Part shown: positions 1,434 to 51,181 of the stretch, piece after piece
How positions within the stretch are numbered: position 1 is the first letter of the stretch
Layout: every line of letters begins with the position of its first letter
Assembly (NCBI GenBank): GCA_016935665.1
Contig: JAFGQN010000203.1
Location: forward strand, 49,237-113,236
Length of the DNA: 64,000 bases
Direction: 5' to 3'
Origin: Deltaproteobacteria bacterium
GTDB taxonomy: Bacteria; Myxococcota_A; Polyangia; JAAYKL01
Notes under the pieces: model-generated
Databases searched by the model: none
What the model was told of the DNA's origin: nothing
Seen by the model: only the letters and a program-made list of their open reading frames with translations
Program-made: the position numbers and the translations under genes

Positions 1434-2975
1434 ATGGAAAAATCGATATGGTTTCTGTTGGCATATCTGACCCTGGGCATTTTTGTTTACGCAGGATGCT
1501 CGTCGAACAGGAACGGGGAAGAAGACCATGATAGCGGTACAAGTGACGCCGACACGGATGCTGATTCGGACAGCGATGCGGACACAGACGCGGATGCCGA
1601 TACCGATAGCGATACCGATAGTGACACAGACACCGATACAGATTCGGACGCGGATTCGGATGCGGATTCGGATGCGGACACAGACACGGATTCGGACTCG
1701 GACACAGACACGGATGCGGATTCGGACTCGGATACGGATAGCGAAACGGATACCGATATAGACAGTGAAGCCGCGGCCGCTGTTGACGCCATTGCAGTGA
1801 CCAACATTGATGACGTTCGCGGCAATCTGACGCTGCCAACCACATCAAATGGTCTGCCCGTTACCTGGTCATCTGATAATCCGTCAATCATATCTGCGGC
1901 GGGTATCGTGAATCGTCCTGGCAGTGATACCGTTGTCGTACTAACCGCAACAGCTGTGAATGGAGATGGCAAAGCGAGCCGAAAGATTACGGCACAGGTG
2001 CTGGGTGCGGTTGACCTGGCTCCGTTTGAGGGCTATGCGTTTGCATACTTTACCGGCAATTCCATAGCCGGCGAAAAAATTCACTTCGCTGTGTCACGGG
2101 GCAATGATGCGCTCAAATGGGATGAACTCAACGACGGTCAGCCGATATTCACCTCAACATATGGCACAAAAGGCCTTCGCGACCCGTTCATCATTCGGTC
2201 CCCGGAGGGCGACACCTTTTACATGATCGCCACCGACCTTTCCATCGGCTCTGGAACCTCATGGGATGAAGCGCAGCGCCAGGGGTCTCTCCATCTCGAA
2301 GTGTGGGAATCGCACGACCTTGTATCGTGGTCGAAGCAGCGCCATGTCAAGGTATCTCCTGACACTGCGGGTAACACCTGGGCGCCTGAGGCCTATTACA
2401 ACGAGGACCTTGGCGCATACGTGGTATTCTGGGCATCGAAGCTTTATGAAGAGAACGACTCCAATCACACCGGAAATACCTACAACCGGATGCTCTATGC
2501 GACCACCCGGGATTTCGTCACATTTTCTGAACCGCAGATTTGGCAGGACGGTATTTCGCGCATCGATTCAACGGTGCTTAAAATCGGTGACGTGTATCAT
2601 CGCTTTACAAAGGATGAAGGCGCCGGTACCACCGGTTGCTCGGATATCATTCAGGAAACGTCAACAAAGCTCACAGCTCCTTTGCCGGAGTGGACGATGA
2701 TCGACAGCTGCATCGGCAAAAACGCAGGTACCAGCGCAGTTGAGGGACCGTCTGTTTTCAAGTCGAACCCCGGCGATATCAATGGCAACTACTTTTATCT
2801 GTTTGTAGACGAGTACAGCGGTCGCGGCTATATCCCCCTGCGTACCTCAGACATTGGCAACCCGTCATGGACCGTGGCGCCGTCATATGATCTCCCCGCA
2901 GCCCCTCGCCATGGCACCGTGATGCCTGTGACCGCCGGTGAGCTGGAAAAGCTGAGGGCACAAATCAATAAATGA
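1434..2975 (+). CDS. Lipoprotein: acidic (D-x-D-x) repeat linker + Ig-like domain + glycoside hydrolase family 43 domain
   Basis: Signal peptide with lipobox (LTLGIFVYAGC). About 100 aa of DTDADSDSDADTD... repeats. The GH43 hallmarks are present: the general-base Asp in GLRDPFIIRSPEGDTFYMIATD and the acid Glu in the SAVEGPSVFK (EGP) motif. Confidence 0.8.
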   Translation: MEKSIWFLLAYLTLGIFVYAGCSSNRNGEEDHDSGTSDADTDADSDSDADTDADADTDSDTDSDTDTDTDSDADSDADSDADTDTDSDSDTDTDADSDSDTDSETDTDIDSEAAAAVDAIAVTNIDDVRGNLTLPTTSNGLPVTWSSDNPSIISAAGIVNRPGSDTVVVLTATAVNGDGKASRKITAQVLGAVDLAPFEGYAFAYFTGNSIAGEKIHFAVSRGNDALKWDELNDGQPIFTSTYGTKGLRDPFIIRSPEGDTFYMIATDLSIGSGTSWDEAQRQGSLHLEVWESHDLVSWSKQRHVKVSPDTAGNTWAPEAYYNEDLGAYVVFWASKLYEENDSNHTGNTYNRMLYATTRDFVTFSEPQIWQDGISRIDSTVLKIGDVYHRFTKDEGAGTTGCSDIIQETSTKLTAPLPEWTMIDSCIGKNAGTSAVEGPSVFKSNPGDINGNYFYLFVDEYSGRGYIPLRTSDIGNPSWTVAPSYDLPAAPRHGTVMPVTAGELEKLRAQINK

Positions 2976-19258: not shown

Positions 19259-22200
19259 TTAGCGGATTAGTGCGGATTCGCTGTTCATGCGTTCTGTAAT
19301 CAGCACAAACTTCTGAAAGTCGGTATAGTGTTCTGGTGCAATTCGCTGGATGTTAAGGTGTGTTTTCCGTTCGATACGCACACGGTGATTTTCTGTTTCA
19401 GTTTCATAGCGGATGCAATATTCGGCACGCCCGCTGGCGTCCGACACGCATTGGGATTGCGGAAGCTGTGAAACCGCAAGGGTTTGAGGTAATTCAATAT
19501 CAACAACATAAGTGGATTTCATATAAGTGGCCAATACCAGTGGCATCGCGCGTTTTGCCAGACCGCCTGTCAACTGCGTGAAATCGGTTTTGAGTGGAAT
19601 AAACAAGTGGCTGCCGTTTGCTGTCTGCTGCAGCATTCCCTCCAATCGGATGTGGTACACCACAGTGAGAGGCACATCGCCATCGTGGATATTTCGAAGT
19701 GAAAAATCCTGCAGTACCGCTTCGGGAAACTTCGATGCCAGCAGATGTTCTTCTACAATTCGACGGTGCTCAGATTTTGAACCTTTAAACAGCGACCGCA
19801 ACAACGATGCCATTTCGCCAGTAATGGATTCTGTTACGGTGCCTGTGCCGCTACCATTGTCGTCGAGCGCAATAGTGGCGTCTATTACTGTTTCATCCAG
19901 AGGGATTCGTCCGGAATTTGTTTTTGCTATCTCACATGTATCTGGCAGCAACACGGATTGATGCTTCAGTTCTGCTGGCAATGTTCCCATTAAGGTCTCG
20001 TCGGCATCCATATGAACCCACGTGCCATCCGGCAGCAAAATCAACGGACTGCTATAGCGATTCATGTCCGGAATAGCGGAACGGGTGTGGTCACCCCACG
20101 CATGAGTGGCCAGTCCCAACCTGGCGTTGATACCCACTGCATTTAACATTGTTTGGAACAGACGCGCCCGGTTGCCCCGTCGACGACTGTAAATGTGTGT
20201 AACAGGCTCAAAGAGCATTGAGTCGTTTTCGATGTTTCGAATAATCCAGGTGTATATCCGATCGGCCTTTTTCGAATCGGGTGCATTTGACTCACCCTTC
20301 AGCGCAATTTTTGTGGCGAACTGTTTCAACTTTGGACTCTGCTGTGATTTACCGTGCAACAGTGTTGTATACCACTCACAGAGTGCTCTGTTGTTCGCCG
20401 CCGCCGTCACGCGAACAGACGGTAGGAATTCGAGGGCATCCGGTGTGTCCGGCTCGCTTTGCAGCGGTTCGATATTGCGGCGTCTAAAGGTGACCACCTG
20501 AATATTATCTGTCAGGCGCGTATTTGGTTCGGGCGCATCTCCCCGTGGGTCAAACTGCAGCGGCATTTCCCTCGGCGCAACAACAATCAGTTCCGAGCGT
20601 ACAAAAGTACTGTTGAAATCCTGAAAAAAGAACGGCTCGGAGTCAAAACCTCCCTTGAATACGTCATGTGGCGGCAGATAGCTGATGCCTTCATATTCCA
20701 CGTAATCGCCAATGGCCAGTCTGGGCATCGACAATGTGGATTTGTTATCGATGGGAGATGGATACAGCACACTTAAATCCGGTTTGATAACTCTGGCCTG
20801 AAGAATTTCGGCTCCTGGAGGAACAGGGAGTTCGCCATACTCGCTGACGGCATCCATGGAGTTGATGCGCCCCACCCAGTGCACCAAACGCATCCCGGCG
20901 CCAAACTTATCGATTATAAGCACCATTCTATCCAGCACCCACGAAAAGTCTCTATCGCTGGTGGAATTTCCTGCCTGATAATCCGCAACCACTTTCAAAC
21001 CATCCACACGATAGGAATTTATCGACATGCCTCCAGCCACTTCGTCACAAGCATACTGCAAATCAGGTCGAAGGGGCATGGCAGCCTGACTGCGACAGAT
21101 CTCCATGGCCTTCTTCGTCTGTGATGTGGCGTGGTATGCGTCAATCAAATACAGTTTGGGCGCCATGGCCAACGGAAATCTTTTATTCGCGGCATTCAAC
21201 TGGGAAATGGCATCTGTTTCTTTGCCCGCGTGTAACAGCGCCATGGCCGTGTCTATTGCGGCTTCGGGAGAAAACGGCGTCTGCTGCGAAATATGCGCCA
21301 GTTCTCCTGCGGCGGCATCAAACTTTAAACGTCTTGAAAATTCAGTAGCCAGGGCGGTGTTGGATAGCGTGCACTTTGTAATTTGTTGCGCCGTTTCCAT
21401 TGCATCATCAAATCGATTTTCCTCAACTGAAAACGCATAGTCCCACATCAGGATGGGGCAGGCATTGTCGCCAAGAATGGTCTTTGCCCCCATAAGATAT
21501 TCCTGTGCAAATGGCATCCATCTTTTTTCATACGCCAACTCCGCAGCGGTCAGATAAAGCGTTGGCTCCTTTGGCGCGGCCTTAATGGATTCATTTACAA
21601 TATCAAATGCGTCCTGCGTGCGCTCATTGCGGTTCGCTGCCTGCGCCAGAAAACGCGCCGCCCTGTACAGACGCGAATCCCTTTGAAACGCGTGTTCATA
21701 TTGCTGCCGCGCCGTTTCCATGCCCGTTTCGATTGCATTGTACGGAGACGTCAGGGCCGCTTCCGCTTTTAAAAGCGCTTGAAAAGGAGCGTTGTCGTTC
21801 AGCTTTGACACCTCCGCCTGCCACTGGTGGGGCGCCACATTCCACAGGTTGTATCGCAATTGGGCCAATCGAGCCGATTCCGAAAGCGGAGCGGGAAAAC
21901 GAATCCCAGTTAATTTCGTCGGTATTGGGGCAGTGGTGAGCGGGAATGATTCGGAGTCATGCAACAGGACCGATTGGTGCATGGTGATCGCCGCCAGGGA
22001 AAATGACGGAGTGTACTCGGTGGCAAATGCCGAAACACTTATCTGGTGACTCCCCGGCGGCAGTGTCGCCGAAAGCCATCTGCTTTCAGGGAGCCATCGT
22101 TCCTGAGAGGTCTGGATGTATGCTGCTTCTCCATCGATATAAATAGTGGCATCGGAATTGCTCTGAAAACGAAACCATACCGTTTGAGGTGTTGAAAGAT

Positions 22201-22930
22201 GGATAGCGGTGCGGGCGACAACATATCCGGTGTTGTCGTCTGGCAGGGGTTGCGACGTAATTTGACACACATCAAACGTGCGATTCTCCACGGGGATCAA
22301 CGGGCGGCCGGCGCCAGCGGACAGCTGCCCTGGCCATATGGGCGATTCAATCAGTTTCGCAAGAGAACGTCTGCCCGTTATGTCTGTTGATAGAGGACCA
22401 GTCAGTTGCCATCGTAAAAGACAGCCCGTATTCTCAAGCAGTTTGAGCGCATCGTCATGTCCCCGTTTCTGTGCAAAGGAAAACTGAAGAATGCGTAATT
22501 GAAACAAGGCTTCAGGCGACAGTGTACCCGGTGCTGCGGACCATTCTTTCAGATGCGGCGAAATGCGTTGCTCAAAATTTTGCACGCGGTGCCGCAACTG
22601 AACCAGCGCAATCGCCGCTGCGGTCCCTTCCCAGAATAGATTCGGCGCTGTACGCGCGACCGAAACGGTGCGTAGATATTTTTCAAACGCTTCCTCGGGA
22701 GTTCCTGTTTCATCCAGAATATATGCCAATATGTAGTTCGCCTCAGGCGTATTGCGTTGACGCAGTTGGTTTTCCAGGGAGGCAATATCGCTTTCTTTGA
22801 AAAAAAGCGACTTTGCCGGCGCTTGCCCACCGCTCCAATTTTGTGAATGAACCGTTTGGGCGGGGATAGAAGCGCAGGATGAAATAAAAAGATACAGCAG
22901 TATGATAACAGCGTTCAACGAGCGAAACAT
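19259..22930 (-). CDS. Large secreted TPR/repeat protein with a degenerate transglutaminase-like domain (Cys and His lost)
   Basis: 1,223 aa. Signal peptide MFRSLNAVIILLYLFISSCAS. The segment aligned to the paralogue's catalytic core reads RRGNRARLFQTMLNAVGINARLGLA and ...SSPLILLPDGTWVHMDAD. The start ATG overlaps the upstream gene's TAA by 1 nt. Confidence 0.6.
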   Translation of the reverse strand: MFRSLNAVIILLYLFISSCASIPAQTVHSQNWSGGQAPAKSLFFKESDIASLENQLRQRNTPEANYILAYILDETGTPEEAFEKYLRTVSVARTAPNLFWEGTAAAIALVQLRHRVQNFEQRISPHLKEWSAAPGTLSPEALFQLRILQFSFAQKRGHDDALKLLENTGCLLRWQLTGPLSTDITGRRSLAKLIESPIWPGQLSAGAGRPLIPVENRTFDVCQITSQPLPDDNTGYVVARTAIHLSTPQTVWFRFQSNSDATIYIDGEAAYIQTSQERWLPESRWLSATLPPGSHQISVSAFATEYTPSFSLAAITMHQSVLLHDSESFPLTTAPIPTKLTGIRFPAPLSESARLAQLRYNLWNVAPHQWQAEVSKLNDNAPFQALLKAEAALTSPYNAIETGMETARQQYEHAFQRDSRLYRAARFLAQAANRNERTQDAFDIVNESIKAAPKEPTLYLTAAELAYEKRWMPFAQEYLMGAKTILGDNACPILMWDYAFSVEENRFDDAMETAQQITKCTLSNTALATEFSRRLKFDAAAGELAHISQQTPFSPEAAIDTAMALLHAGKETDAISQLNAANKRFPLAMAPKLYLIDAYHATSQTKKAMEICRSQAAMPLRPDLQYACDEVAGGMSINSYRVDGLKVVADYQAGNSTSDRDFSWVLDRMVLIIDKFGAGMRLVHWVGRINSMDAVSEYGELPVPPGAEILQARVIKPDLSVLYPSPIDNKSTLSMPRLAIGDYVEYEGISYLPPHDVFKGGFDSEPFFFQDFNSTFVRSELIVVAPREMPLQFDPRGDAPEPNTRLTDNIQVVTFRRRNIEPLQSEPDTPDALEFLPSVRVTAAANNRALCEWYTTLLHGKSQQSPKLKQFATKIALKGESNAPDSKKADRIYTWIIRNIENDSMLFEPVTHIYSRRRGNRARLFQTMLNAVGINARLGLATHAWGDHTRSAIPDMNRYSSPLILLPDGTWVHMDADETLMGTLPAELKHQSVLLPDTCEIAKTNSGRIPLDETVIDATIALDDNGSGTGTVTESITGEMASLLRSLFKGSKSEHRRIVEEHLLASKFPEAVLQDFSLRNIHDGDVPLTVVYHIRLEGMLQQTANGSHLFIPLKTDFTQLTGGLAKRAMPLVLATYMKSTYVVDIELPQTLAVSQLPQSQCVSDASGRAEYCIRYETETENHRVRIERKTHLNIQRIAPEHYTDFQKFVLITERMNSESALIR

Positions 22931-25900
22931 TATTTTGCTTCTCCTTTGCGATGGAGCGTAATTCGCGCGCGCTCCGCCGCGTCCACCGCCAGTACAAACC
23001 GCAGGAAATCGCCATATTCAGACACCTCCACCACCTGCTTTGTCAAACTGAATGTGCGTGTCACCGTCAGTCCTCCCGCTGTTTTTCGAATGCGTCGCTC
23101 ATACGCGCCAAAGTCGGAGACAATGCGGGCATCGTTGACAGGTGTTTCGGCGTTGTACTGATGTGGAACAAGATACCGAATGGTCAGCTCCGTTGTGCGG
23201 GCGGGGCCCACCTGTAGCGGGTGACGTCGTTTTTGCAACGGAGCAAATTTGGGCTTTAGTTTCATGGGAGGCATTACTTCAAATGACAGGGTCCCAAAAT
23301 TTTGTTTCGCCAACTGCGGTATCCGGGCAAAAAAGGCAATCTGAGGGGTTTTTTCCAGGTCTTTCAAATTTAAAAAGTCAGACGATTCCATTTGAATGGC
23401 GGGATATCGTTCGGAAAACCGTTCTTCAAGAATCTGCTTATCGCTGGCGGTTGCGAACGTGGTGCGCAGCCATGGTGCAAAAGGCGCCCCGGATGCGCTC
23501 ATCGTTCCGTTTATGGTTGCGCTGCCATCCGATGCAATGGTTATCGTCTCTGTTTCAATAAACGTGGATGCAGCGCTGTCACGGACAGTCGTATTTCGCA
23601 ATTTTACAGGTGAAACACCAATCACCAGCGCCTCTATCCCCTGGTCTTCGAAGGGCATGTCGTTTACCCCATGAAATGTGGCTGTCCCATCCAGCCATAA
23701 ATCGTATTTGGGTACGTATGCAATGGCGTGATTGAACAGTGAGAGGGAAGGGTGCTGCATGCGTATCTGACCAGCGGACCGGGTACGCACAAGCGCTACA
23801 TGGGCCTGTATACCGGCTTCGTTCAACATGGCTACCAGAAGAGTGGCGGTGTCTTTGCAATCGCCAAAGCCGCGGGCACGCACCTGAGAGGTACTGTATG
23901 GTTTGTAGCCATGAATACCAAATTCCAGACCCACGTATCGGATGTTGGTAGTTACCCAGCTGTAAACGGCTGCAATTTTATCCCGGTCGTTTCGACGATT
24001 TCTAATCAATTTCTGAACCAGCGATTTCAGCGATGTGTCCCCTTTGAGCTGGGGACGAATCAGTTCCGCGTACCACGATTCCATTTGGGACCAATCCTGC
24101 CAGGAGGTGGCGTGGACGTATTCCACCAGCGACATAGCGCCGGGGACATCCGGCTCGTCGGGGATGGCAGGGAGATTTTGTGCTGTAAATACAGTTATAT
24201 CCATATCATCCGCCTTTGTGTCAACTCTACGGACGGGGGTGGACAGTTCAAAGTATACTGGAAACGTTTTGGGGCGTATGAGGGCAAACTGGAACAGCGC
24301 CACCGGGATATCGCTGTTGATCGGGATAATGGTGCCAAAGTAGTTTCCAAACATATTCTCCTGGCCAATATCATCAACGCGAAATTGAAATTCCACCACA
24401 TCTCCCACGGCCGGTCTGGGCAATTCCACCACTTCCGCCTCAATGTCGTAATAGAGCCGATACCAGGGTTCTGACACCGGGAAGGTGGCGCGTCCTGTGG
24501 CCTGTTCGATGGTGCCATCGGTTTTGAACAACCGGGCCTTAAGCAGCTGAATCGTCTGAGTGGAGGAAAATTGCTCGCTGTACTGCTGCCATTGTCTGGC
24601 GCCATCGTCGGTGGCGATATAAGCAACCACCTGCGTGACGGTGGACGACAGACCGTTTTCGTGGACCTGAATGACGGTGTTGTTTACCAGGAGACAGTCC
24701 TCCTGCCGGTTTTCACAGAAGTGGCCTTTTTTTGTAAATGTTTGTGGGGAAATAAGCCAGGGCGTCGCCAGCGTGTCCTCCGGTTGCAGGAATGACAGAT
24801 ATGCACGCAATTGGGTATCCTGCGGGGATTGCCGCAAACTGCCGGTCAGATATGTAAGCGCGCGATCTTTGTCTCTGTGGATATAAAACTCTCCGGCAAA
24901 CTTTCGGTATTCACTAACCCCCGGCGCTTTTGCATGCAGGTCATCGAGGAGGGCAATCAGTGGTTTGGTGAGAGAAGCGCCGTCCATCAGTTTCGCCAGT
25001 TCGAGAACCGTTTCAATGGGGGGCGCGCCAATGAGCTGCCAGGATTTCAATGTTTGCTGTACGGATTTGTCAATGCCATCCACCGACAAACGCAGTATCT
25101 GCAGATGACGGTCGAAATTCCCAAAATCGCTGTCCAGCGCTTTTTTTAAAATGGTTGTTGTGTGTACATCTGCCGGCATCCCTTCCTGGCTATCGGCCAC
25201 ACAACCGGCGAGCAGCGGGGAGAGGGGACGGCCGATGAGCTGTTTTCTGAGTTGTCGCCCGGTCTCCGGCAGAAATATATTGTAGTAATTGAGTATCGCA
25301 CAAATGACTTCATCGGATGCGTCCGGGCGTTTTGACGCTTCGATAAGATCGAACTGCGCATTGCGATAAAGCGGCGCGGCAGCGTCCAAAATCAGCAGTT
25401 TCGTTTTGGCTTCTGCATTTTCCACATCCTTTTCCAAAACATGCATATATGCCTGGCGCTGCTCATTCACATCCAATGTCAGTTGTGCGGCTGTGAAGCA
25501 GAACTCGAAGGACTTCAATTCCTCACAGGCGCTGAATGCGGCATCCCTTTGAGCGGTGTCTTTTTTTGCGGCGCCGGTCAGATGTGCGTACTTTGCAAAA
25601 TAGCCGTTATGGGCAGGACGCACAGGTCCTTTGGGCGCAGGTTTTAACAGTTGCAGCAGAGACGCCGACTTTGGCGCCGTCGCCACTTCAGTGTGAACGG
25701 GGGGACGAAATTCGGCACGCTCATTAAACGGGAGCACTGGCTGTTCGTTGGAATCGAGAAACCGGGCGTAAAAAGAAAGGGTACCACTCTCATCGCTGCA
25801 GACTTTGACAGTGATGCTTTCTTTGCCCTGTTCCAGCCGCACGGGGATGTGGAATCTGTTTATATCGGCGTCGTCAAATTGGGTATCTTCCAAAACCCGC

Positions 25901-26535
25901 GTATTATTGACGTAGACCCGTGCCTGACCTCCGGCGCCAAACCAAAGATGATAGTTGTCGGTGCGCGGAACGGCCACATGGGTTTGTGCGACAACACATA
26001 TATCTTTTGCTGATGAGAAGAGGGGTTCCATCGTTACTTTTCCAAGACGATGAGAGAGCCAGCTGGATTGGAACAGACATGGCCCTGCGCTTTTGGACGG
26101 TGTGCAATTGGGTGCCGTTGGCAGTGGTGCGGGTGAATCATTGTCGATGATAAACGATTCAGCAAGTCCTGTGCCCGACTCGTTGGGAAATGGACCGGCA
26201 AATTGCCACCGGGTTAAAAATCCCATTTGTTCAATCGCATGGTTGGCGTCTTTGGGGTGGCCAGTCATGAGTTTTAAAGTGGCCAGCAGATGACGGGCCC
26301 GGTGTCTTGCGGCCGGCTGCAAAGCGGGGAGCTGCAGTGCGCTTTCCAGCTCGGCGGTGGCAACCTTTGCTCCAAATGAACCATACTGCTCAAAAATCTG
26401 CAAAACGAGCAAATCGGCAAAACGGGAATTCGGTTTTTGCTTCAACACTGAGAGTGCTCTGGAGTCTGCCAGTGCCGAAGTTGCTGCGAGCAGCGTGCAC
26501 ATGACCCCCAATAAAAACAGTTTACGTATCTTCAT
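22930..26535 (-). CDS. Large secreted protein with an intact transglutaminase-like cysteine-protease core (DUF3857/DUF3858-like architecture)
   Basis: About 1,200 aa. Signal peptide MKIRKLFLLGVMCTLLAATSALA. Core RGFGDCKDTATLLVAMLNEAGIQAHVALV (Cys), FNHAIAYV (His) and LWLDGTA (Asp). Start chosen at the MKIRK ATG; the track uses an upstream TTG at 26571. Confidence 0.7.
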   Translation of the reverse strand: MKIRKLFLLGVMCTLLAATSALADSRALSVLKQKPNSRFADLLVLQIFEQYGSFGAKVATAELESALQLPALQPAARHRARHLLATLKLMTGHPKDANHAIEQMGFLTRWQFAGPFPNESGTGLAESFIIDNDSPAPLPTAPNCTPSKSAGPCLFQSSWLSHRLGKVTMEPLFSSAKDICVVAQTHVAVPRTDNYHLWFGAGGQARVYVNNTRVLEDTQFDDADINRFHIPVRLEQGKESITVKVCSDESGTLSFYARFLDSNEQPVLPFNERAEFRPPVHTEVATAPKSASLLQLLKPAPKGPVRPAHNGYFAKYAHLTGAAKKDTAQRDAAFSACEELKSFEFCFTAAQLTLDVNEQRQAYMHVLEKDVENAEAKTKLLILDAAAPLYRNAQFDLIEASKRPDASDEVICAILNYYNIFLPETGRQLRKQLIGRPLSPLLAGCVADSQEGMPADVHTTTILKKALDSDFGNFDRHLQILRLSVDGIDKSVQQTLKSWQLIGAPPIETVLELAKLMDGASLTKPLIALLDDLHAKAPGVSEYRKFAGEFYIHRDKDRALTYLTGSLRQSPQDTQLRAYLSFLQPEDTLATPWLISPQTFTKKGHFCENRQEDCLLVNNTVIQVHENGLSSTVTQVVAYIATDDGARQWQQYSEQFSSTQTIQLLKARLFKTDGTIEQATGRATFPVSEPWYRLYYDIEAEVVELPRPAVGDVVEFQFRVDDIGQENMFGNYFGTIIPINSDIPVALFQFALIRPKTFPVYFELSTPVRRVDTKADDMDITVFTAQNLPAIPDEPDVPGAMSLVEYVHATSWQDWSQMESWYAELIRPQLKGDTSLKSLVQKLIRNRRNDRDKIAAVYSWVTTNIRYVGLEFGIHGYKPYSTSQVRARGFGDCKDTATLLVAMLNEAGIQAHVALVRTRSAGQIRMQHPSLSLFNHAIAYVPKYDLWLDGTATFHGVNDMPFEDQGIEALVIGVSPVKLRNTTVRDSAASTFIETETITIASDGSATINGTMSASGAPFAPWLRTTFATASDKQILEERFSERYPAIQMESSDFLNLKDLEKTPQIAFFARIPQLAKQNFGTLSFEVMPPMKLKPKFAPLQKRRHPLQVGPARTTELTIRYLVPHQYNAETPVNDARIVSDFGAYERRIRKTAGGLTVTRTFSLTKQVVEVSEYGDFLRFVLAVDAAERARITLHRKGEAK

Positions 26536-26704
26536 TTGACGTGAGTATAAGAGGCTGCGTTGGAAAAGCAATTTGGATTTAAAATGAATGAATGCGAAGC
26601 CCTGTTTTTCAATTCAATCCTCCGTTATCGTTTGACCTGTGCGCCCAGACCTTGTCTTATGCCGACAATCAACTATGTGGAAAGTTCCCTTAAACAGAGT
26701 GGAT

Positions 26705-44909: not shown

Positions 44910-46418
44910 ATGAAAGCAAACGACGCATATCAATGGTTGGTTCAACACCAAACAGATACGGCATATCTGTTTTCCACAGCAGAGCTGGCGGCGTGGGATC
45001 AGCGCACATATATCCCTGCCCAGGGGCATGCGCATCGCAGTAAACAAATCGAAACGCTGGCCAGGCTGATGCATCAGCGAGGAACCGACCCGCAAATTAA
45101 TGATCGTCTGCAGGAGGTGGAAAGCAGCGCGTTCCTGCACGAGGCTTCGCCAAAGGTTCGCGCCAACATTCGAATGTGGCGCAGAGACTATGACCGGCAG
45201 GTGAAAATCCCGGAAAAGCTGGCTTCTGAAATAGCAGGCGCTTCATCAGCAGGTGAATCGGTTTGGGAATCCGCGATGCAGGAGAACGATTGGGATTCTT
45301 TTTTTCCCCATCTGGAAAAATTACTCTCGTTAAGCAGGGAAAAAGCAGAGTGTTTAGGATATGCCAACGAACCGTACGACGCGCTGCTCGATGAATATGA
45401 GATGGGGCTGACCGCAACTTTCCTAAGCAGTATGTTTGAAGAATTGCAGCATCCACTGGTGGCGCTGCTTCGAAAAATTCAGGACAGTGCTGTTAAACCA
45501 AAGCATTCTGTTCTGCACGGCGATTTTCCGGTGTCAAAGCAAAAACAAGTATGCGTGTCACTGGTTGAAGCAATTGGTTACTCCCTTAAAAGCGGTCGGA
45601 TTGATGAAAGCATGCATCCTTTTTCCGTTGGAATTGGCCCTGGGGATTCACGAATAACCACTCGATACAACCCGGAGTATCTCGGAAGCGGCATATTCGG
45701 GTGCCTTCACGAAGCTGGACACTCTTTGTACGAATTGGGGCTGCCCAAAGCCCATTTTGGCACACCTGCAGGCATCTTTGCATCCATTGGCGTGCATGAA
45801 TCTCAGTCCCGTTTGTGGGAAAATCAAGTCGGACGCTCGCTCGCCTTTTGGAAATTTGCACGGCCCGTTTTAGACGACGCTTTTTCATCGGTGGCAAACG
45901 CGTCGATGGATGACCTGGTGCTCTCTGTCAATGAAGTAAAACCGGGGCTTATTCGCGTTGAAGCGGATGAAGTCACCTACAATCTTCATGTCATGCTGCG
46001 GTTCGAACTGGAAAGGGCGTTGTTCAAACGAGAAATAGATCCCGCGGAATTGCCGGAGGTCTGGTCGACAAAAATGGAGCAGTTGCTGGGCATTCGACCA
46101 CTGACTGTCAAAGAAGGCGCCATGCAGGATGTTCATTGGTCTGCGGGCATGTTTGGCTATTTTCCAACCTACAGTCTTGGCAATCTGTATGCCGCTCAAC
46201 TCTTTGCCGCTGCGAACCGCGATCTGGGTGATTTGGACGAGCAGTTTGGCAAAGGCGAGTTCTCAGAGCTCCTTGGCTGGTTGCGACAAAAAGTGCATCA
46301 GAAGGGCCAATGCCTGTCTCCCATCGAATTGATACGGAATGCCACAGGAGAGCTGCCGACGTCGAAGTATTTCCTCGAATACTGCCAGACCAAGTACTCC
46401 AAATTGTATCAACTTTAA
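44910..46418 (+). CDS. M32 family metallocarboxypeptidase (carboxypeptidase Taq-like)
   Basis: HEAGHSLYE zinc-binding motif plus IGPGDSRITTRY (the DxRxT M32 signature) and GxxQDxHW (GAMQDVHWSAGMFGYFPTYSLG). Confidence 0.8.
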   Translation: MKANDAYQWLVQHQTDTAYLFSTAELAAWDQRTYIPAQGHAHRSKQIETLARLMHQRGTDPQINDRLQEVESSAFLHEASPKVRANIRMWRRDYDRQVKIPEKLASEIAGASSAGESVWESAMQENDWDSFFPHLEKLLSLSREKAECLGYANEPYDALLDEYEMGLTATFLSSMFEELQHPLVALLRKIQDSAVKPKHSVLHGDFPVSKQKQVCVSLVEAIGYSLKSGRIDESMHPFSVGIGPGDSRITTRYNPEYLGSGIFGCLHEAGHSLYELGLPKAHFGTPAGIFASIGVHESQSRLWENQVGRSLAFWKFARPVLDDAFSSVANASMDDLVLSVNEVKPGLIRVEADEVTYNLHVMLRFELERALFKREIDPAELPEVWSTKMEQLLGIRPLTVKEGAMQDVHWSAGMFGYFPTYSLGNLYAAQLFAAANRDLGDLDEQFGKGEFSELLGWLRQKVHQKGQCLSPIELIRNATGELPTSKYFLEYCQTKYSKLYQL

Positions 46419-46470
46419 AACAACAACGAAAACAACAACGAAATGGGGTCGATTCACGTGGACCAGACGC

Positions 46471-47181
46471 TCAGATGGGCAATCGAACGGGGACTTTTCT
46501 GGAGATTTTGCACCCATACAGAGAATGCTCAACGGACCACGAAATGATTTCCACTCCAAATTCCGATGCAGACAAAAGCGTTTCACTGTAAATCGGATCT
46601 ATCTGGACAGCAGGAGAAACAAACTGGCAGTCATTCCGGTTTACCAGAAAAAACATTACCGCGCGATGTCCCTCTTTCACCATGTCCGATAGTTCCCGCA
46701 AATGTTTGGCGCCCCGGGTGGTGACAGCATCGGGAAAGTATGCGCCGGCGCCTTTTTTGTATGTCACGTTTTTCACTTCCACATAGCAGCGCTTATTCCT
46801 GGATTCCAATAACAGATCAATGCGGGAACCTGTGCCATACGTCACCTCTCTTCGGATGGTGTCATACCCCTGCAGCTCCGGAATCTGTCCAGCGGCAATG
46901 GAGGTTTCCACAATATGATTGCTGAATGACGTATTCACGCCCACCCAGGTTCCTTCAGACTGCACCAGTTCCAGGGTCCATTTCAACTTTCGTTTGGGAG
47001 ACGGATGGTAGGACACCGCCACGGGTGAACCGGGAGTTTTCGTACTGAGCATAGATCCCGTGTTGGGCAAATGGGCGGTGATTTCCTCGCCTGAGTCCAA
47101 ATGAATATCGGCGAGGAAACGTTTGTATCGTTTAATGAGTTTACCAGTCGTCAGTCGTTCGGTATATTGAACCACAACCAC
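46471..47181 (-). CDS. sfsA: Sugar fermentation stimulation protein A homologue
   Basis: N-terminus YKRFLADIHLDSGEEITAHLPNTGSM and overall collinearity with SfsA. 236 aa. Confidence 0.8.
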   Translation of the reverse strand: MVVVQYTERLTTGKLIKRYKRFLADIHLDSGEEITAHLPNTGSMLSTKTPGSPVAVSYHPSPKRKLKWTLELVQSEGTWVGVNTSFSNHIVETSIAAGQIPELQGYDTIRREVTYGTGSRIDLLLESRNKRCYVEVKNVTYKKGAGAYFPDAVTTRGAKHLRELSDMVKEGHRAVMFFLVNRNDCQFVSPAVQIDPIYSETLLSASEFGVEIISWSVEHSLYGCKISRKVPVRLPI

Positions 47182-47383: not shown

Positions 47384-48628
47384 ATGGAAAAGATCAAAAC
47401 GGATGTGACTGTTCTTCATATTGAAAGTGATGCTGACAACCGGCGTCTGGTTCATGAAATACTTTCGAACAACGGTATTAATGTAGTTGAAGCGAGCAAT
47501 GGTATTGATGGCATCCATAAGGCGTTATCCACTTCGCCCGATGTTATTTTGCTGGACATCGCTCTGCCGGATTTGGATGGTTATGAAGTCACCCTGAAAA
47601 TACGAGGCGACGAGCGCGGAAAAAAAGTACCCATCGTGGCGTTGTCTACTCAGAATGATAAAAAAATGATTCAGGCTGTGGGCTGTGATGGATTGATCGT
47701 TAAACCCATTGAAATTTCAAAGCTTCCCGAACAGATTCGCGCGTTTGCCAAAGCCGGCAGACCGACTGTGCAGATTCGAAGCGATGCAGATAGAGATGAC
47801 GAAAGTGGATTGCTGCTGCTTCAGGGACATAAGTTGGCAGACAAGCTTCAAAAGAAGGTGGAGGAGCTCGAACGCGCCAACCGCGCATTGCTGGAATCGG
47901 AAAAGATCCGAACCGATTTCTATCGAAATTTATCCCATGAATTATCGACCCCCTTGACCCCGGCTGTTGGATACCTGAACATGCTCCTTAACGAGGATTT
48001 GGGCGAACTGACCCCGTTGCAACGCAAAGCCATCGAATCCATTGGACGAGGTGTCACCAAAGTGCGCTCCATGGTCGAAAATCTGCTCGATGTTACCGCT
48101 CTTTCCACCGGAAAGATGTCCTTTTTTTCCAGGGAGTACGATTTTAACATGCAGGCGCGAGAGGCATTGAAGCTCTGCTCGGAACAGTTTCGTGAAAGAG
48201 GGATTCGTGTGGATTCCTCCATTCCCAAATCGCAGTTTGTCGGCATTGGCGATTCGGAGAAACTGCGACGAGCGATGGTTCAATTGCTTGAAAATGCTGT
48301 AAAATTCTGCAAACCCGACGGTCAGGTCCATATATGTACGCGTCGCACCGCCGACAGATTTATGTACCTGGTTTATGATTCAGGGTCCGGAATTCCGGAG
48401 CAGGAACTTCAGGCCATTTTCAAAACATTTTATCAAATCGATGGCTCACCCACCCGCGAGCATGGTGGCACAGGACTGGGTCTGGCGCTGGCACGAAAGA
48501 TCATTGAACGATTTGGCGGAGAGATATGGGCAGAGTCTCCCCCAAAGGAACACGCCATTGGATTTGAATGGGCACAAACGATGGTTGGGTTGTGGGTTCC
48601 GGTGCAGGTTTCGGTAGCAAACGTATAA
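47384..48628 (+). CDS. Hybrid sensor kinase with the receiver first (REC - HisKA - HATPase_c)
   Basis: REC with acidic pocket and Asp (DVILLDIALPDLDGYEV). H-box SHELSTPLTP. G-boxes SGSGIPEQE...GGTGLGLALA. Confidence 0.8.
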   Translation: MEKIKTDVTVLHIESDADNRRLVHEILSNNGINVVEASNGIDGIHKALSTSPDVILLDIALPDLDGYEVTLKIRGDERGKKVPIVALSTQNDKKMIQAVGCDGLIVKPIEISKLPEQIRAFAKAGRPTVQIRSDADRDDESGLLLLQGHKLADKLQKKVEELERANRALLESEKIRTDFYRNLSHELSTPLTPAVGYLNMLLNEDLGELTPLQRKAIESIGRGVTKVRSMVENLLDVTALSTGKMSFFSREYDFNMQAREALKLCSEQFRERGIRVDSSIPKSQFVGIGDSEKLRRAMVQLLENAVKFCKPDGQVHICTRRTADRFMYLVYDSGSGIPEQELQAIFKTFYQIDGSPTREHGGTGLGLALARKIIERFGGEIWAESPPKEHAIGFEWAQTMVGLWVPVQVSVANV

Positions 48629-48631
48629 AAG

Positions 48632-48640
48632 TTATCCACA
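48632..48640 (+). promoter_or_regulatory. Perfect DnaA box TTATCCACA (box 1)
   Basis: Exact 9-mer match, 4 bp after the stop of the upstream kinase gene. Confidence 0.6.
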
Positions 48641-48745
48641 GGCCAGCGTTGTTTTTCTTGATAACGCATCCGAATTTTACCGGTTAAACAATTGAAATTA
48701 TTGAGTTTTGAATAGAGTATGCCATTGTGACGGAATTCACAATAG

Positions 48746-48775
48746 TTTATCCACAGGTTTTCCACAGTTGTCCAT
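48746..48775 (+). promoter_or_regulatory. Perfect DnaA box TTATCCACA (box 2), immediately followed by two degenerate boxes TTTTCCACA and TTGTCCATA
   Basis: 48746..48754 perfect; 48757..48765 one mismatch; 48767..48775 two mismatches. All in the same orientation. Confidence 0.6.
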
Positions 48776-48807
48776 AAGTGAAAAAAAAATGGAAATTTTG
48801 CTCCGTG

Positions 48808-48838
48808 GTTCCCACATTTTCTCCCCAGTTTATCCACA
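48808..48838 (+). promoter_or_regulatory. Degenerate DnaA box GTTCCCACA and perfect DnaA box TTATCCACA (box 3)
   Basis: 48808..48816 two mismatches; 48830..48838 perfect; same orientation as boxes 1 and 2. An AT-rich tract (A9TGGAAATTTTG) lies at 48781..48800, and the region 48660..48745 is AT-rich. Confidence 0.6.
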
Positions 48839-48844
48839 AAAAAA

Positions 48845-48947
48845 ACGGCGAACTCGCGATTTGGGGGCTGTTGTTTGCGAATTCGCCGTTGGTAAATTGA
48901 AGGCGACGAACTCGAATCGGGGGGCTGTTGTTATCGAGCTCGCCGCC
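48845..48947. repeat. Two tandem imperfect palindromes / hairpins with a conserved loop GGGGGCTGTTGTT (candidate sRNA or paired protein-binding sites)
   Basis: Hairpin 1 at 48845..48889: arms ACGGCGAACTCGC / GCGAATTCGCCGT, 19-nt loop. Hairpin 2 at 48902..48947: arms GGCGACGAACTCGA / TCGAGCTCGCCGCC, 18-nt loop. Stem differences between the two copies are compensatory. Confidence 0.5.
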
Positions 48948-49183
48948 AAAAACTGGTTGGAATCAAATGCAACAGATGTGCCATATGTTACAAAGGGGAC
49001 TGCACCGCAAAAAATCCTGTATATTCAAATTGTACCGAATTTTAATACCCAATGCGTTTTTATCCGTGCTAAAAGGGATGTTTCAGACCTGAAACGATGG
49101 CTTGCAAAAGGTTAATTTTTGACATGTTGGCGAAATCGTTCAAATTATGTGAATGGTAACTCAACAGAAAGCAGTAACTTTTA

Positions 49184-51181
49184 GTGATGTCGCTAACGAT
49201 TTATAAGGTAGTTGTTTTCTCGACTGACAGTTTTGATGTTCTTGGGTTTCGACGTGCGCTAAAAAAAGCATCCATTCACTGTGAAACCGTGTTTATTTCC
49301 GCGTATGAGGAGCTGGAGCAAATCATTCATCAGGAAAATCGCGAAACGTTTGATTTGGCATTGGTTGAGTATGGAGAAAATATAGAGGATTCCTGTCGCG
49401 CGGCCCAGTTGCTCGTGGGTGAAACCGATTTGCCCATTATTGGCATCTTCATGCCCGACAGCTTTGAAACCATCGCCAGGGAACTGTCCGAGGGAATCAC
49501 GAGTTATGTTGTTCAATCTCAAAAGGGAGAACACTTCGATGTGTTGTCCGTACTCATCCGCAACAACGTCCGGTCTCAAACCGATGTGGTGAAGTTTGAC
49601 AGGTTCCGCGAGCAAATCGCCATGTTAAAGCGGGAGCAGCACGCTCTGCTTAATTCGAGTTTGACATTGATTTCATATCATCAGCCCGATACCCGCATTA
49701 TCTGGTCCAATGCGTATGAAGAAGAAGGCGAGGTCAGTTCGTACGACTACCTCGCAGGACGTTTGTGTAAGGAAATCTGGAAAAATGGCGGCATACCCAA
49801 TGGCAAATGCCCCGTGGCCACCGCTGTGGAAACGGGAGAATCTGTCGAAGCGGAAGTGACCACCCTGGATGGATACACTATGCTGCAGCGATCCTATCCA
49901 GTGAAGAATGAAGACGGCAAAGTGGTTGGTGTCATGGCCAGTACTCTCGATATGTCTGCTGTTTCGCCAGCTCAGGAGGCTATGCGCACTGCTGCTCGAA
50001 TTCAGGCATCCGCCACTCTTGCGGGGGGGATTGCACATAAATTCAACAACTTAATGGCAGGGGTCATGGGTAATGTGTCTTTGGCGCTGCAGGATTTGAC
50101 AGAAAACCATCCCGCCTGTCCGTTGCTCTACGAGATTGAGCAGGCGGCTCATACAGCCGGTGAGTTGTCAGAACAATTGTTGGCTTTCGCGCGCGGCGGC
50201 AAATACCTGCCAAAGCGAATCAACATGAACGAGGTGATTACCGAAGCATTGCAAACCCATTCCCGCAGGCTTCCCGGGAAAATAAAGCTGGATCACGAGC
50301 TCACCAAAGATTTGTGGCCCATTGACGCCAATCAGGCGCAAATGGGACTTCTGTTGACGCAGGTATTCAATAATGCTGTTGAAGCGATTGAAGCCAGCGA
50401 CAGATTTCAGAGAGGGGAAGGTCGTATTTCCATCATCACGACCAATGAGCAGATTGTGGATTCCGCCAATTCACAAAAACCGTGGCTGAGAGATGGACGC
50501 TATGTGTGCGTCGCCATCGAAGACAACGGTTGCGGTATGAGCGCGGAAACCCGGCAGAAAATATTTGAACCGTTCTTTACAACGAAGAAAAAGGGTCGTG
50601 GCCTCGGGTTATCCGGTGCTTATGGGATAGTGCGCAGTCACGAAGGACATATTTTTGTTGAATCCGAAAAGGGAAGGGGCACTACCGTGGCAATTCATAT
50701 TCCTGCGACGAATGTGGAAGAATTACCTGTCGAACCACCGGCAAAAGCAATAGCGGAAACACCACGTCCGATTGTACTGGCCCGCGGAAGCGAGACAGTA
50801 CTGGTTGTGGATGACGAAGCGATGCTTCGCAAAGCCATTCACAGACTCCTGAAGCGACTGGGATATACCGTGCTTGAAGCATCCAGTGGCGATGAAGCTG
50901 TGACACTGGCCAAAGAATACGAAGGTCCCATACATATCACCTTACTCGATATGATTATGCCTGGACTGGATGGTATGGACGCCTACCGTCAGTTAAAAGA
51001 ACAGTATCCCACCATGGAAGTAATTGTAATGAGCGGTTACGATCGCGAAACATATGGCGACGCGCTTATCGATGCCGGAGCTGGTGCGTTTATGCAGAAA
51101 CCAGTTCCCATGGATCGAATAGCCTCTGAAATACGCCGCATACTGGACGACAAGGAAACACCGCCGGTTCCTGCCGATTGA
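49184..51181 (+). CDS. Hybrid sensor kinase (pseudo-receiver-like N-terminus - PAS - HisKA - HATPase_c - REC)
   Basis: H-box GIAHKFNNLMAGV. G-boxes ...DNGCGMSAE...GRGLGLSGAYGIV. C-terminal REC with Asp (ITLLDMIMPGLDG). The N-terminal ~110 aa are REC-like but the acceptor position reads LVEYGE. Confidence 0.8.
   Translation: MMSLTIYKVVVFSTDSFDVLGFRRALKKASIHCETVFISAYEELEQIIHQENRETFDLALVEYGENIEDSCRAAQLLVGETDLPIIGIFMPDSFETIARELSEGITSYVVQSQKGEHFDVLSVLIRNNVRSQTDVVKFDRFREQIAMLKREQHALLNSSLTLISYHQPDTRIIWSNAYEEEGEVSSYDYLAGRLCKEIWKNGGIPNGKCPVATAVETGESVEAEVTTLDGYTMLQRSYPVKNEDGKVVGVMASTLDMSAVSPAQEAMRTAARIQASATLAGGIAHKFNNLMAGVMGNVSLALQDLTENHPACPLLYEIEQAAHTAGELSEQLLAFARGGKYLPKRINMNEVITEALQTHSRRLPGKIKLDHELTKDLWPIDANQAQMGLLLTQVFNNAVEAIEASDRFQRGEGRISIITTNEQIVDSANSQKPWLRDGRYVCVAIEDNGCGMSAETRQKIFEPFFTTKKKGRGLGLSGAYGIVRSHEGHIFVESEKGRGTTVAIHIPATNVEELPVEPPAKAIAETPRPIVLARGSETVLVVDDEAMLRKAIHRLLKRLGYTVLEASSGDEAVTLAKEYEGPIHITLLDMIMPGLDGMDAYRQLKEQYPTMEVIVMSGYDRETYGDALIDAGAGAFMQKPVPMDRIASEIRRILDDKETPPVPAD

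Follow-up and report, generated by a model that had tools for sequence, protein, structure and literature searches.

Results

The spacer between two kinase genes and its tandem hairpins

The subject of this study is a 555-bp intergenic spacer (48629-49183) within a 64-kb stretch of contig JAFGQN010000203.1 from a Deltaproteobacteria bacterium of the Myxococcota; the whole stretch is called the window, and positions are counted from its first letter. The spacer separates two plus-strand signalling genes, one encoding a REC-HisKA-HATPase kinase on the left (47384-48628) and one encoding a PAS-HisKA-HATPase-REC hybrid kinase on the right (49184-51181). It holds two tandem hairpins, an array of DnaA boxes and a putative sigma-54 promoter. 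Our reading, to which we assign a probability of about three in four, is that the promoter and hairpins constitute a predicted small-RNA (sRNA) gene on the minus strand, convergent with the left-hand kinase gene.

The initial annotation of this DNA had described two tandem palindromes with 18-19-nt loops sharing GGGGGCTGTTGTT, and we recovered both at the coordinates given there. Hairpin A (48902-48947; arms 48902-48915 and 48934-48947) forms, on the minus strand, the stem GGCGGCGAGCUCGA / UCGAGUUCGUCGCC with two G·U pairs and an 18-nt loop, UAACAACAGCCCCCCGAU (48933->48916). Hairpin B (48844-48890; arms 48844-48857 and 48877-48890) has arms of 14 nt each that are 93% complementary, the minus-strand stem (AA)CGGCGAAUUCGC / GCGAGUUCGCCG(UU) with one U·G pair, and a 19-nt loop, AAACAACAGCCCCCAAAUC (48876->48858). 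An exact search of the window placed the shared motif GGGGGCTGTTGTT only at 48863 and 48920, once in each loop. By itself it is not rare (3 matches in the window against 1.8 expected when two mismatches are allowed), and the non-randomness of the paired loops comes from their hairpin context and conservation, not from the motif.

Folding differed sharply between the strands. On the minus strand both hairpins close as perfect helices of 14 bp, with a folding energy of −48.1 kcal/mol and a z of −7.1 that none of 200 shuffles equalled; the plus strand gave a z of −1.7, with A·C mismatches disrupting hairpin A. Read from the minus strand, each of the three imperfect stem positions is a G·U pair. 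The loops, read initially as GGGGGCUGUUGUU, would accordingly be AACAACAGCCCCC in an RNA made from the other strand.

Directly 3' of hairpin B on the minus strand is a U8 tract (48838-48845), the last base of which overlaps the DnaA box at 48830-48838. Hairpin B and the U8 tract together have the form of an intrinsic-terminator-like 3' end, that is, a GC-rich 12-14-bp stem followed by U8, with family loops (17-24 nt) longer than the 3-8 nt typical of intrinsic terminators. A simple promoter and terminator scan, whose loop limit was 3-8 nt, called no terminator at hairpin B. Hairpin A has neither a U-tract after it nor a promoter of its own, and both hairpins are therefore most likely carried on one RNA. 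The predicted sRNA is about 120 nt long (48838-48957, minus strand) and consists of 5'-ACCAGUUUUUG, hairpin A, the 13-nt linker UUCAAUUUACCAA, hairpin B and U8. Its 5' end was placed from promoter geometry, counting 12 nt on from the C of the −12 GC to reach +1 (within 3 nt either way), and its 3' end, at about 48838, was taken from the U-tract.

A putative sigma-54 promoter and candidate upstream sites

About 20 nt before hairpin A lies TGGCACATCTGTTGCA (48983->48968, minus strand), which matches the sigma-54 (−24/−12) promoter consensus TGGCAC-N5-TTGCW at the exact spacing, with GG at −25/−24 and GC at −13/−12. Only two exact matches to TGGCAY-N5-TTGCW occur in the window, and this is one of them. 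Neither the promoter nor the U-tract had been noticed initially, and the simple scan, too, did not flag this promoter, which is not of the sigma-70 type.

Sigma-54 promoters need an enhancer-binding ATPase bound about 80-150 bp upstream. A palindrome of the form TTTCA-N4-TGAAA, GTTTCAGACCTGAAAC (49080-49095), lies about 111 bp upstream of the promoter and is a candidate upstream activating sequence for an enhancer-binding protein. In the window, L098, L100, L105, L106 (with one mismatch), L108 and L110 it stands at −109 to −113, whereas L122 has it at about −125, L117 at −177 and L132 roughly 130 bp upstream (L numbers denote homologous loci, introduced below); L111 and L120 have a one-mismatch version upstream. 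Between palindrome and promoter, a second conserved block, TTTTATCCGTGCTAAAA (49059-49075), could be the site of an architectural protein or of a second activator.

On the far side of these sites, a sigma-70-like promoter (TTGACA-18 nt-AATTAT, 49119-49148, plus strand) precedes the hybrid kinase gene and is kept in all close relatives. This promoter and the sRNA's candidate enhancer palindrome lie back-to-back, and the two divergent units may share regulatory DNA.

Homologous loci

We collected 14 distinct homologues besides the window from metagenome assemblies, seven lineages being reached through synteny alone. By the homologues of its upstream kinase, the window belongs to an uncultured "Deltaproteobacteria" lineage of metagenome-assembled genomes, and ribosomal protein S1 is closest to Polyangia, Myxococcota and Sandaracinus sequences. 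Five further lineages (L098, L099-101, L105, L106, L108-109) keep the kinase-spacer-kinase order with kinases 85-90% identical, and each has one hairpin, not two, with an A6-10 run beside it on the plus strand.

Six spacers, the window's included, were aligned on the minus strand (alignment A1), which revealed invariant islands in DNA otherwise 55% identical. These islands are the TGGCA and TTGC elements of the sigma-54 promoter, invariant in all six orthologous regions amid variable flanks, the hairpin arms, the C-run of the loop, the U-tract and the TTTCA-N4-TGAAA palindrome about 110 bp upstream; the block 49059-49075 also forms conserved columns. Further islands are a TTTTATC.GTGCTAAAA block, the DnaA boxes and the sigma-70-like promoter facing the hybrid kinase.

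Two more distant groups were reached via neighbouring proteins: L110, in which the hybrid kinase is merely 50% identical, and L132-134, in which the upstream kinase is 67% identical and MetH lies on the other side. Both have the upstream palindrome and, on the corresponding strand, the promoter, about 21 nt, the hairpin and U8; in L110 and L132 the sigma-54 motif stands at the same distance, 20-23 nt before the stem. A single hairpin between promoter and U-tract was thus seen in L098, L100, L105, L106, L108, L110 and L132, and across the seven synteny-derived lineages TGGCAY-N5-TTGCW is invariant at a fixed distance within divergent intergenic DNA. Three other homologues of the upstream kinase (L102, L103 and L107; 64-73% identity) have different downstream neighbours and no hairpin, so linkage to this kinase is frequent, not universal. 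The spacer next to P0130, a homologue of the hybrid kinase, is 58 bp long and leaves no room for the RNA.

Metagenome assemblies were also scanned with a pattern that left the stem unspecified (TGGCAY-N5-TTGC, then GCCCCCC 37-47 nt on, then T6 13-21 nt further). It returned 21 loci, eight of which (L111, L113, L117, L120, L122, L125, L126 and L130) share the stem CGGCGRAYUCG / CGAGUUCGCCG, an agreement in sequence that is not explicable by chance. The genomic contexts of these members vary and include an orthologue of the kinase with MetH, Lon, REC-only proteins and others.

All homologues have the promoter, a leader of about 10 nt, one hairpin with a C-rich loop, and U6-10, which directly follows the hairpin in 15/15 loci including the window. 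Comparison of these loci fixes the strand, the hairpin, the terminator shape and the promoter motif at the level of sequence. The family stem is 12-14 bp, GC-rich and almost fixed in sequence (CGGCGAACUCG / CGAGUUCGCCG), and the 17-24-nt loop carries a run of 6-8 C. In the distant members found by pattern, an inner GAUG/CAUC helix of 4-5 bp leaves an apical loop of 5-8 nt, CCCCCCC(A). The C-run is the only conserved part of the loop and the most conserved unpaired feature of the family; CUGUUGUU differs among relatives. Hairpin B is the orthologue of the single hairpin of all relatives (alignment A3, described below). Hairpin A, judged by this comparison, is an extra copy peculiar to the lineage of this genome, the product of a tandem duplication.

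Wherever its direction was judged (L110, L111, L113, L116, L120, L122, L125, L132 and the window), the gene that follows the sRNA was convergent with it. The stop codon of this gene is often adjacent to the terminator or overlapped by it (gap 0-56 nt), whether the gene encodes a kinase, Lon, DinB or a REC-only protein.

One locus stands apart. In L116 (1961-2045, minus strand), a sigma-54 promoter, a C-rich leader of about 24 nt, a hairpin with a C8 loop and U10 lie beside a dinB-like gene, an architecture like that of the family, but the stem, GCGGCCUGGUC / GAUCAGGUCGC, is unrelated to that of the family, and the locus scores only 23 bits with the family covariance model. It may be a distant member or a look-alike. 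Three mutually related loci (L112, 645-731; L121, 2503-2589; L124, 1123-1209) contain a different short unit with a sigma-54 promoter, in which the terminator has its C-run in the stem, not in the loop (…CCCUCAGCCCCCCUGAAUAAGGUGGGCUAUUUUUUU). This unit may represent another small-RNA family.

Covariation and copy number

Alignment A3, of 16 distinct hairpins, supports a 13-bp helix in which 96.2% of positions pair, compared with 29-43% when the partners were slid by 1-3 columns. Five of the 13 pairs have changed on both sides, and none of 500 column shuffles reached the observed pairing or covariation score. Two full series run through wobble intermediates, A-U to G·U to G-C and C-G to U·G to U-A, and RNAalifold found the identical helix unguided. 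The fold and covariance check proposed initially for homologous intergenic regions thus bore out a conserved hairpin.

Mismatches were strongly biased by strand. An alignment of 15 hairpins contains 13 G·U cells versus one A·C, and the opposite strand would mismatch at those 13; the 13 are not all independent events, at least eight or nine being so. This imbalance identifies the minus strand as the transcribed one. Five relatives gave z = −4.1 to −5.5 for the sense strand and about −0.8 for the antisense strand wherever wobble pairs occur.

Compensatory change between the two hairpins of the window had been claimed at the outset. It holds for the innermost pair (C:G versus A:T), while the other three differences are one-sided, being A·C on the plus strand as first written and G·U on the minus strand. 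Nor is structure conserved in place of sequence, as had been argued: the stem sequence itself is strongly conserved, four of its pairs never vary, and its changes are only wobble or compensatory. Support from covariation is real but modest in amount.

A covariance model of the hairpin (R1) detected 48835-48897 (minus strand, 68.1 bits) and 48900-48954 (minus strand, 49.7 bits) and nothing else above 20 bits in the window. It found exactly one copy per related locus in about 220 kb searched, and within the DNA compared the element is single-copy. Scanning the contigs of named genomes for GGGGCTGTTGT-N32-62-GGGGCTGTTGT gave 96 matches, and the best-folding ones, which were inspected and included CRISPR repeats and coding repeats, were not homologous.

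Searches against known RNAs and coding sequences

Rfam 15 gave no match in the window at gathering thresholds, and its E-value mode gave chance-level matches only (E of at least 1.7). A search of the window together with six distant loci, at gathering and at permissive E-values, likewise returned noise. The top sub-threshold match was suhB/mmgR (RF00519), at 48831-48928 (minus strand, 13.8 bits) in the window and at 1472-1568 (minus strand, 21.2 bits) in L130, with a gathering score of 41; it probably reflects a common shape, in which a C-rich hairpin loop precedes a terminator, and not homology. ErsA reached 21 bits against a threshold of 50.

A transfer-messenger RNA had been considered and set aside at the outset, and we found neither a tRNA nor a tmRNA. 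The 135-aa plus-strand open reading frame covering the region (48708-49115), already suspected to be spurious, had no Pfam match and no conserved counterpart in relatives, in which the open stretches at this position vary in length and boundaries and are alike only where the DNA is conserved.

The neighbouring DnaA boxes

The adjacent DnaA boxes reported by the initial annotation are real. They occupy 48629-48838 in one orientation (plus strand), with TTATCCACA at 48632-48640, 48747-48755 and 48830-48838 and TTTTCCACA at 48758-48766. Three perfect boxes and one near-perfect box within 210 bp make a cluster, as is expected of an oriC, and the window as a whole holds 26 boxes (at most one mismatch) versus 14.3 expected, a number that none of 100 shuffles reached. 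An array of 4-8 same-orientation boxes is conserved in the five close relatives (L098-L109), and so in the clade of the window only. It is made of TTATCCACA and variants, some 11 bp apart, with the first box directly after the stop codon of the kinase gene.

The array is, however, a neighbour of the RNA module and lies outside it. Hairpin and promoter occur without any DnaA box in L110, L111, L120 and L132, where the convergent kinase gene has its stop codon 0-56 nt from the terminator. Comparison thus separates the hairpin from the boxes, and we rejected the idea that it is an integral part of them. Nor is a replication origin supported: GC skew is positive on both sides, and cumulative G−C, starting at 0, climbs to about 1100 without a minimum at 48-49 kb. 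As the skew does not change sign, the array is more like a DnaA-regulated or datA/DARS-like site than like an origin.

Within the DnaA-box region, just upstream of the tandem boxes, is a palindrome of the CRP/FNR-family type, TGTGA-N6-TCACA (48726-48741). It is perfect in three of six lineages (the intergenic regions of the window, L100 and L105).

Discussion

Predicted function of the RNA

The reading that best accommodates these sequence comparisons is a sigma-54-dependent, trans-acting sRNA of a new family, of a known kind and not a member of the Pxr family. An activator would occupy the TTTCA-N4-TGAAA site about 110 bp upstream, sigma-54 RNA polymerase would start at about 48957, and transcription would end at the hairpin and U8, at about 48838. 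The product would be about 60 nt in nearly all relatives (a leader of about 10 nt, stem, C-run loop and U tail), and in this genome, with its tandem hairpin, one transcript of about 120 nt carrying two C-run loops. We infer that the RNA is made, that sigma-54 and an activator are needed for this, and that its working face is the C-run loop. This loop might pair with G-rich, Shine-Dalgarno-like stretches of target mRNAs; protein binding is less likely. The 5' and start regions of the two flanking kinase genes contain no conserved G-run. How the RNA acts is much less certain than its assignment as an sRNA gene.

Several points weigh against this reading. What is said here of the transcript, of its ends and of its dependence on sigma-54 is prediction throughout, and the pairing of the C-run loop with G-rich targets is argued by analogy. 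At about 60 nt, and with little in it beyond the terminator, the RNA would be among the smaller trans-acting sRNAs, and the C-run is broken in L132 (CCCCUC). The TTTCA-N4-TGAAA palindrome was not found upstream of L113, L125 and L130, and no gene for an enhancer-binding protein (GAFTGA or ESELFGH motifs) was found in the window or the fetched flanks. Members obtained by pattern were chosen by promoter and U-tract, so that only the synteny-derived lineages test these features independently. Finally, the stem sequence is conserved far beyond the needs of a simple terminator. This last point implies some constraint in addition to folding, which might be a protein partner or a 3' arm that takes part in pairing.

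Alternative explanations

We consider it unlikely that the locus makes a sigma-54 transcript attenuated by its terminator, the read-through of which would be antisense to the convergent gene (here the kinase gene at 47384-48628) and regulate it in cis. The arrangement would suit such a mechanism: the downstream gene is convergent in every confidently called context, gaps between terminator and stop codon are as short as 0-22 nt in L110, L111, L113 (Lon) and L116 (DinB), and it is the kinase gene that faces the RNA in each of four separate lineages (the clade of the window, L110, L111/L120 and L132). Yet the convergent gene varies between kinase, Lon, DinB and REC-only proteins, so there is no common cis target, and about 210 bp of DnaA-box DNA separate the terminator from the kinase gene in the clade of the window. 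The stem with U7-10, moreover, resembles a strong constitutive terminator, and the conserved C-run loop would have no obvious role.

It is quite improbable that the hairpin is a plain terminator or 3'-end stabiliser, without any function as an RNA, that does no more than end transcription in a crowded spacer. Intrinsic terminators classically have this shape, a GC-rich stem and then a U-tract, but the only thing upstream of it on the U-tract strand is the dedicated, conserved sigma-54 promoter about 20 nt away, and no U-tract follows the hairpin on the strand of the flanking genes. A terminator would also be expected to drift, whereas this stem stays near-identical while the neighbouring kinases drop to 50-63% amino-acid identity. 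The loop, moreover, is 17-24 nt long and has a conserved C-run.

Recognition at the level of DNA is very unlikely, be it as a palindromic operator of a dimeric regulator, a pair of which had been among the initial candidates, or as a cruciform or hairpin of a DnaA-box replication origin. Arm sequences are conserved, as expected of operator half-sites, and the hairpin lies directly beside 4-8 same-orientation boxes in six lineages. Against this, the spacing between the arms ranges over 17-24 bp among homologues, which is incompatible with a fixed half-site geometry, and recognition of double-stranded DNA would not produce the strand bias of the mismatches; the four homologues without boxes and the steady climb of cumulative G−C through the site leave the origin without support. 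A selfish dispersed repeat of the REP or MITE type, likewise proposed initially and suggested by two similar tandem palindromes in one intergenic region, is hardly credible, since the element has only its two tandem copies in 64 kb and one per related locus, keeps a syntenic position across lineages, always with the same promoter, and shows no target-site duplications or terminal repeats.

Relation to known small RNAs

The sRNA gene favoured here finds its closest analogue in Pxr, a myxobacterial sRNA and the one well-studied sRNA of the phylum, which has been reported from Cystobacterineae only and is thought to be of recent origin there (PMC5568312, PMC5684412). Found in Myxococcus xanthus and in further Cystobacterineae, Pxr seems to have a sigma-54 promoter with an upstream enhancer region, and its gene lies between pxrR/nla19, encoding an NtrC-like regulator, and an NADH dehydrogenase gene (PMC5568312). 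It is 108 nt long with three stem-loops (SL1-SL3) and a conserved 8-bp core in SL3 (PMC5684412); a C-to-A change in the SL1 loop, UUCCCCCC, abolishes function, and Cystobacter has tandem paralogs, each with its own promoter (PMC5568312, PMC5684412). We rebuilt the SL1 sequence from the probe and the Table S1 primers of PMC5568312.

Pxr and the RNA predicted here share their phylum-level group, Myxococcota. Each is a stand-alone sRNA with an apparent sigma-54 promoter and, upstream of it, an enhancer region, a candidate one in the present case. In each a short leader comes before a stem-loop with a C-rich apical loop, and a GC-rich terminator hairpin forms the end; the Cystobacter paralogs parallel the tandem hairpin of this genome. 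They differ in that Pxr has three stem-loops and the SL3 core, whereas here a single hairpin doubles as its own terminator. The stems are unrelated by inspection (GCUGAAGGUGG in Pxr versus CGGCGAACUCG here), with only a low-complexity C-run in common. Neighbouring genes here encode histidine kinases, MetH, Lon and others, with no GAFTGA protein nearby, and only the hairpin is duplicated, whereas the Cystobacter paralogs have separate promoters. The relation thus looks like analogy rather than homology. It is doubtful that the family is a deep-branching counterpart of Pxr, a sigma-54-dependent C-loop "gatekeeper" sRNA in a histidine-kinase phosphorelay with its terminator, in the clade of the window, fused to the non-origin DnaA array. 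Were it so, such an sRNA would be ancestral to a far wider range of Myxococcota than the Cystobacterineae, and the fusion would couple sigma-54 transcription to DnaA occupancy or titration of the datA/DARS type.

Outside this phylum, Vibrio Qrr1-4 (activated through LuxO), GlmY (GlrR/QseF) and CrcZ (CbrB) are sigma-54-dependent sRNAs, often encoded beside two-component or phosphorelay genes. The present gene resembles theirs in its −24/−12 promoter, a palindrome about 100 bp upstream, a short RNA, an intrinsic terminator and a position between two histidine kinase genes. Those RNAs are, however, larger, with several stem-loops, and share neither sequence nor Rfam similarity with it. The CbrB/CrcZ system is treated in PMC8871633. 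CrcZ and GlmY act through protein titration by repeated A-rich motifs or through mimicry, features that were not seen here.

In RsaE/RoxS of Firmicutes, RepG of Helicobacter and the alpha-proteobacterial MmgR/suhB, a C-run loop pairs with G-rich ribosome-binding-site regions or G-repeats, and in Myxococcota such pairing is suspected for SL1 of Pxr. An unpaired C-run in a hairpin loop is the likeness; the taxa and promoters are different, and the Rfam scores are far under threshold. A small regulatory RNA was among the initial candidates and is the one we favour in kind, with a different strand, loop and analogy. The array of the CsrB/RsmZ type then invoked resembles the locus by its repeated hairpins with an identical loop motif, and this in the present genome only. 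Its GGA or ANGGA loop motifs are absent on both strands, and the ancestral form has one hairpin, as in all 14 other homologues.

Implications and further observations

Regulatory RNAs of uncultured Myxococcota are almost unknown. The predicted gene would give the phylum a second sRNA family with a sigma-54 promoter and a C-loop, unrelated in sequence to Pxr and represented by 15 distinct homologues. Annotators would gain an RNA family for which a promoter, a candidate enhancer site and a fold supported by covariation are described and a covariance model is ready for use, and experimenters a compact testable unit of activator site, sigma-54 promoter and 60-nt RNA. The tandem hairpin would show, in a natural case, how an sRNA can acquire another functional loop through duplication. 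The mechanism as a whole is not of a new kind.

Two features elsewhere in the window deserve mention. Synteny breaks directly upstream of the left-hand kinase gene, at which the window (44910-47181) has genes for an M32 carboxypeptidase and SfsA, and L098, L100, L105, L106 and L108 have an ArsR-type helix-turn-helix gene and multihaem cytochrome genes instead; P0130, the more distant hybrid-kinase homologue, adjoins an M32 peptidase. The other exact sigma-54 consensus in the window (22147-22162, plus strand) lies, on the opposite strand, inside one of two adjacent paralogous genes (19259-26571, minus strand) for proteins of about 1,200 aa each with TPR, DUF3857, transglutaminase-core and DUF3858 domains.

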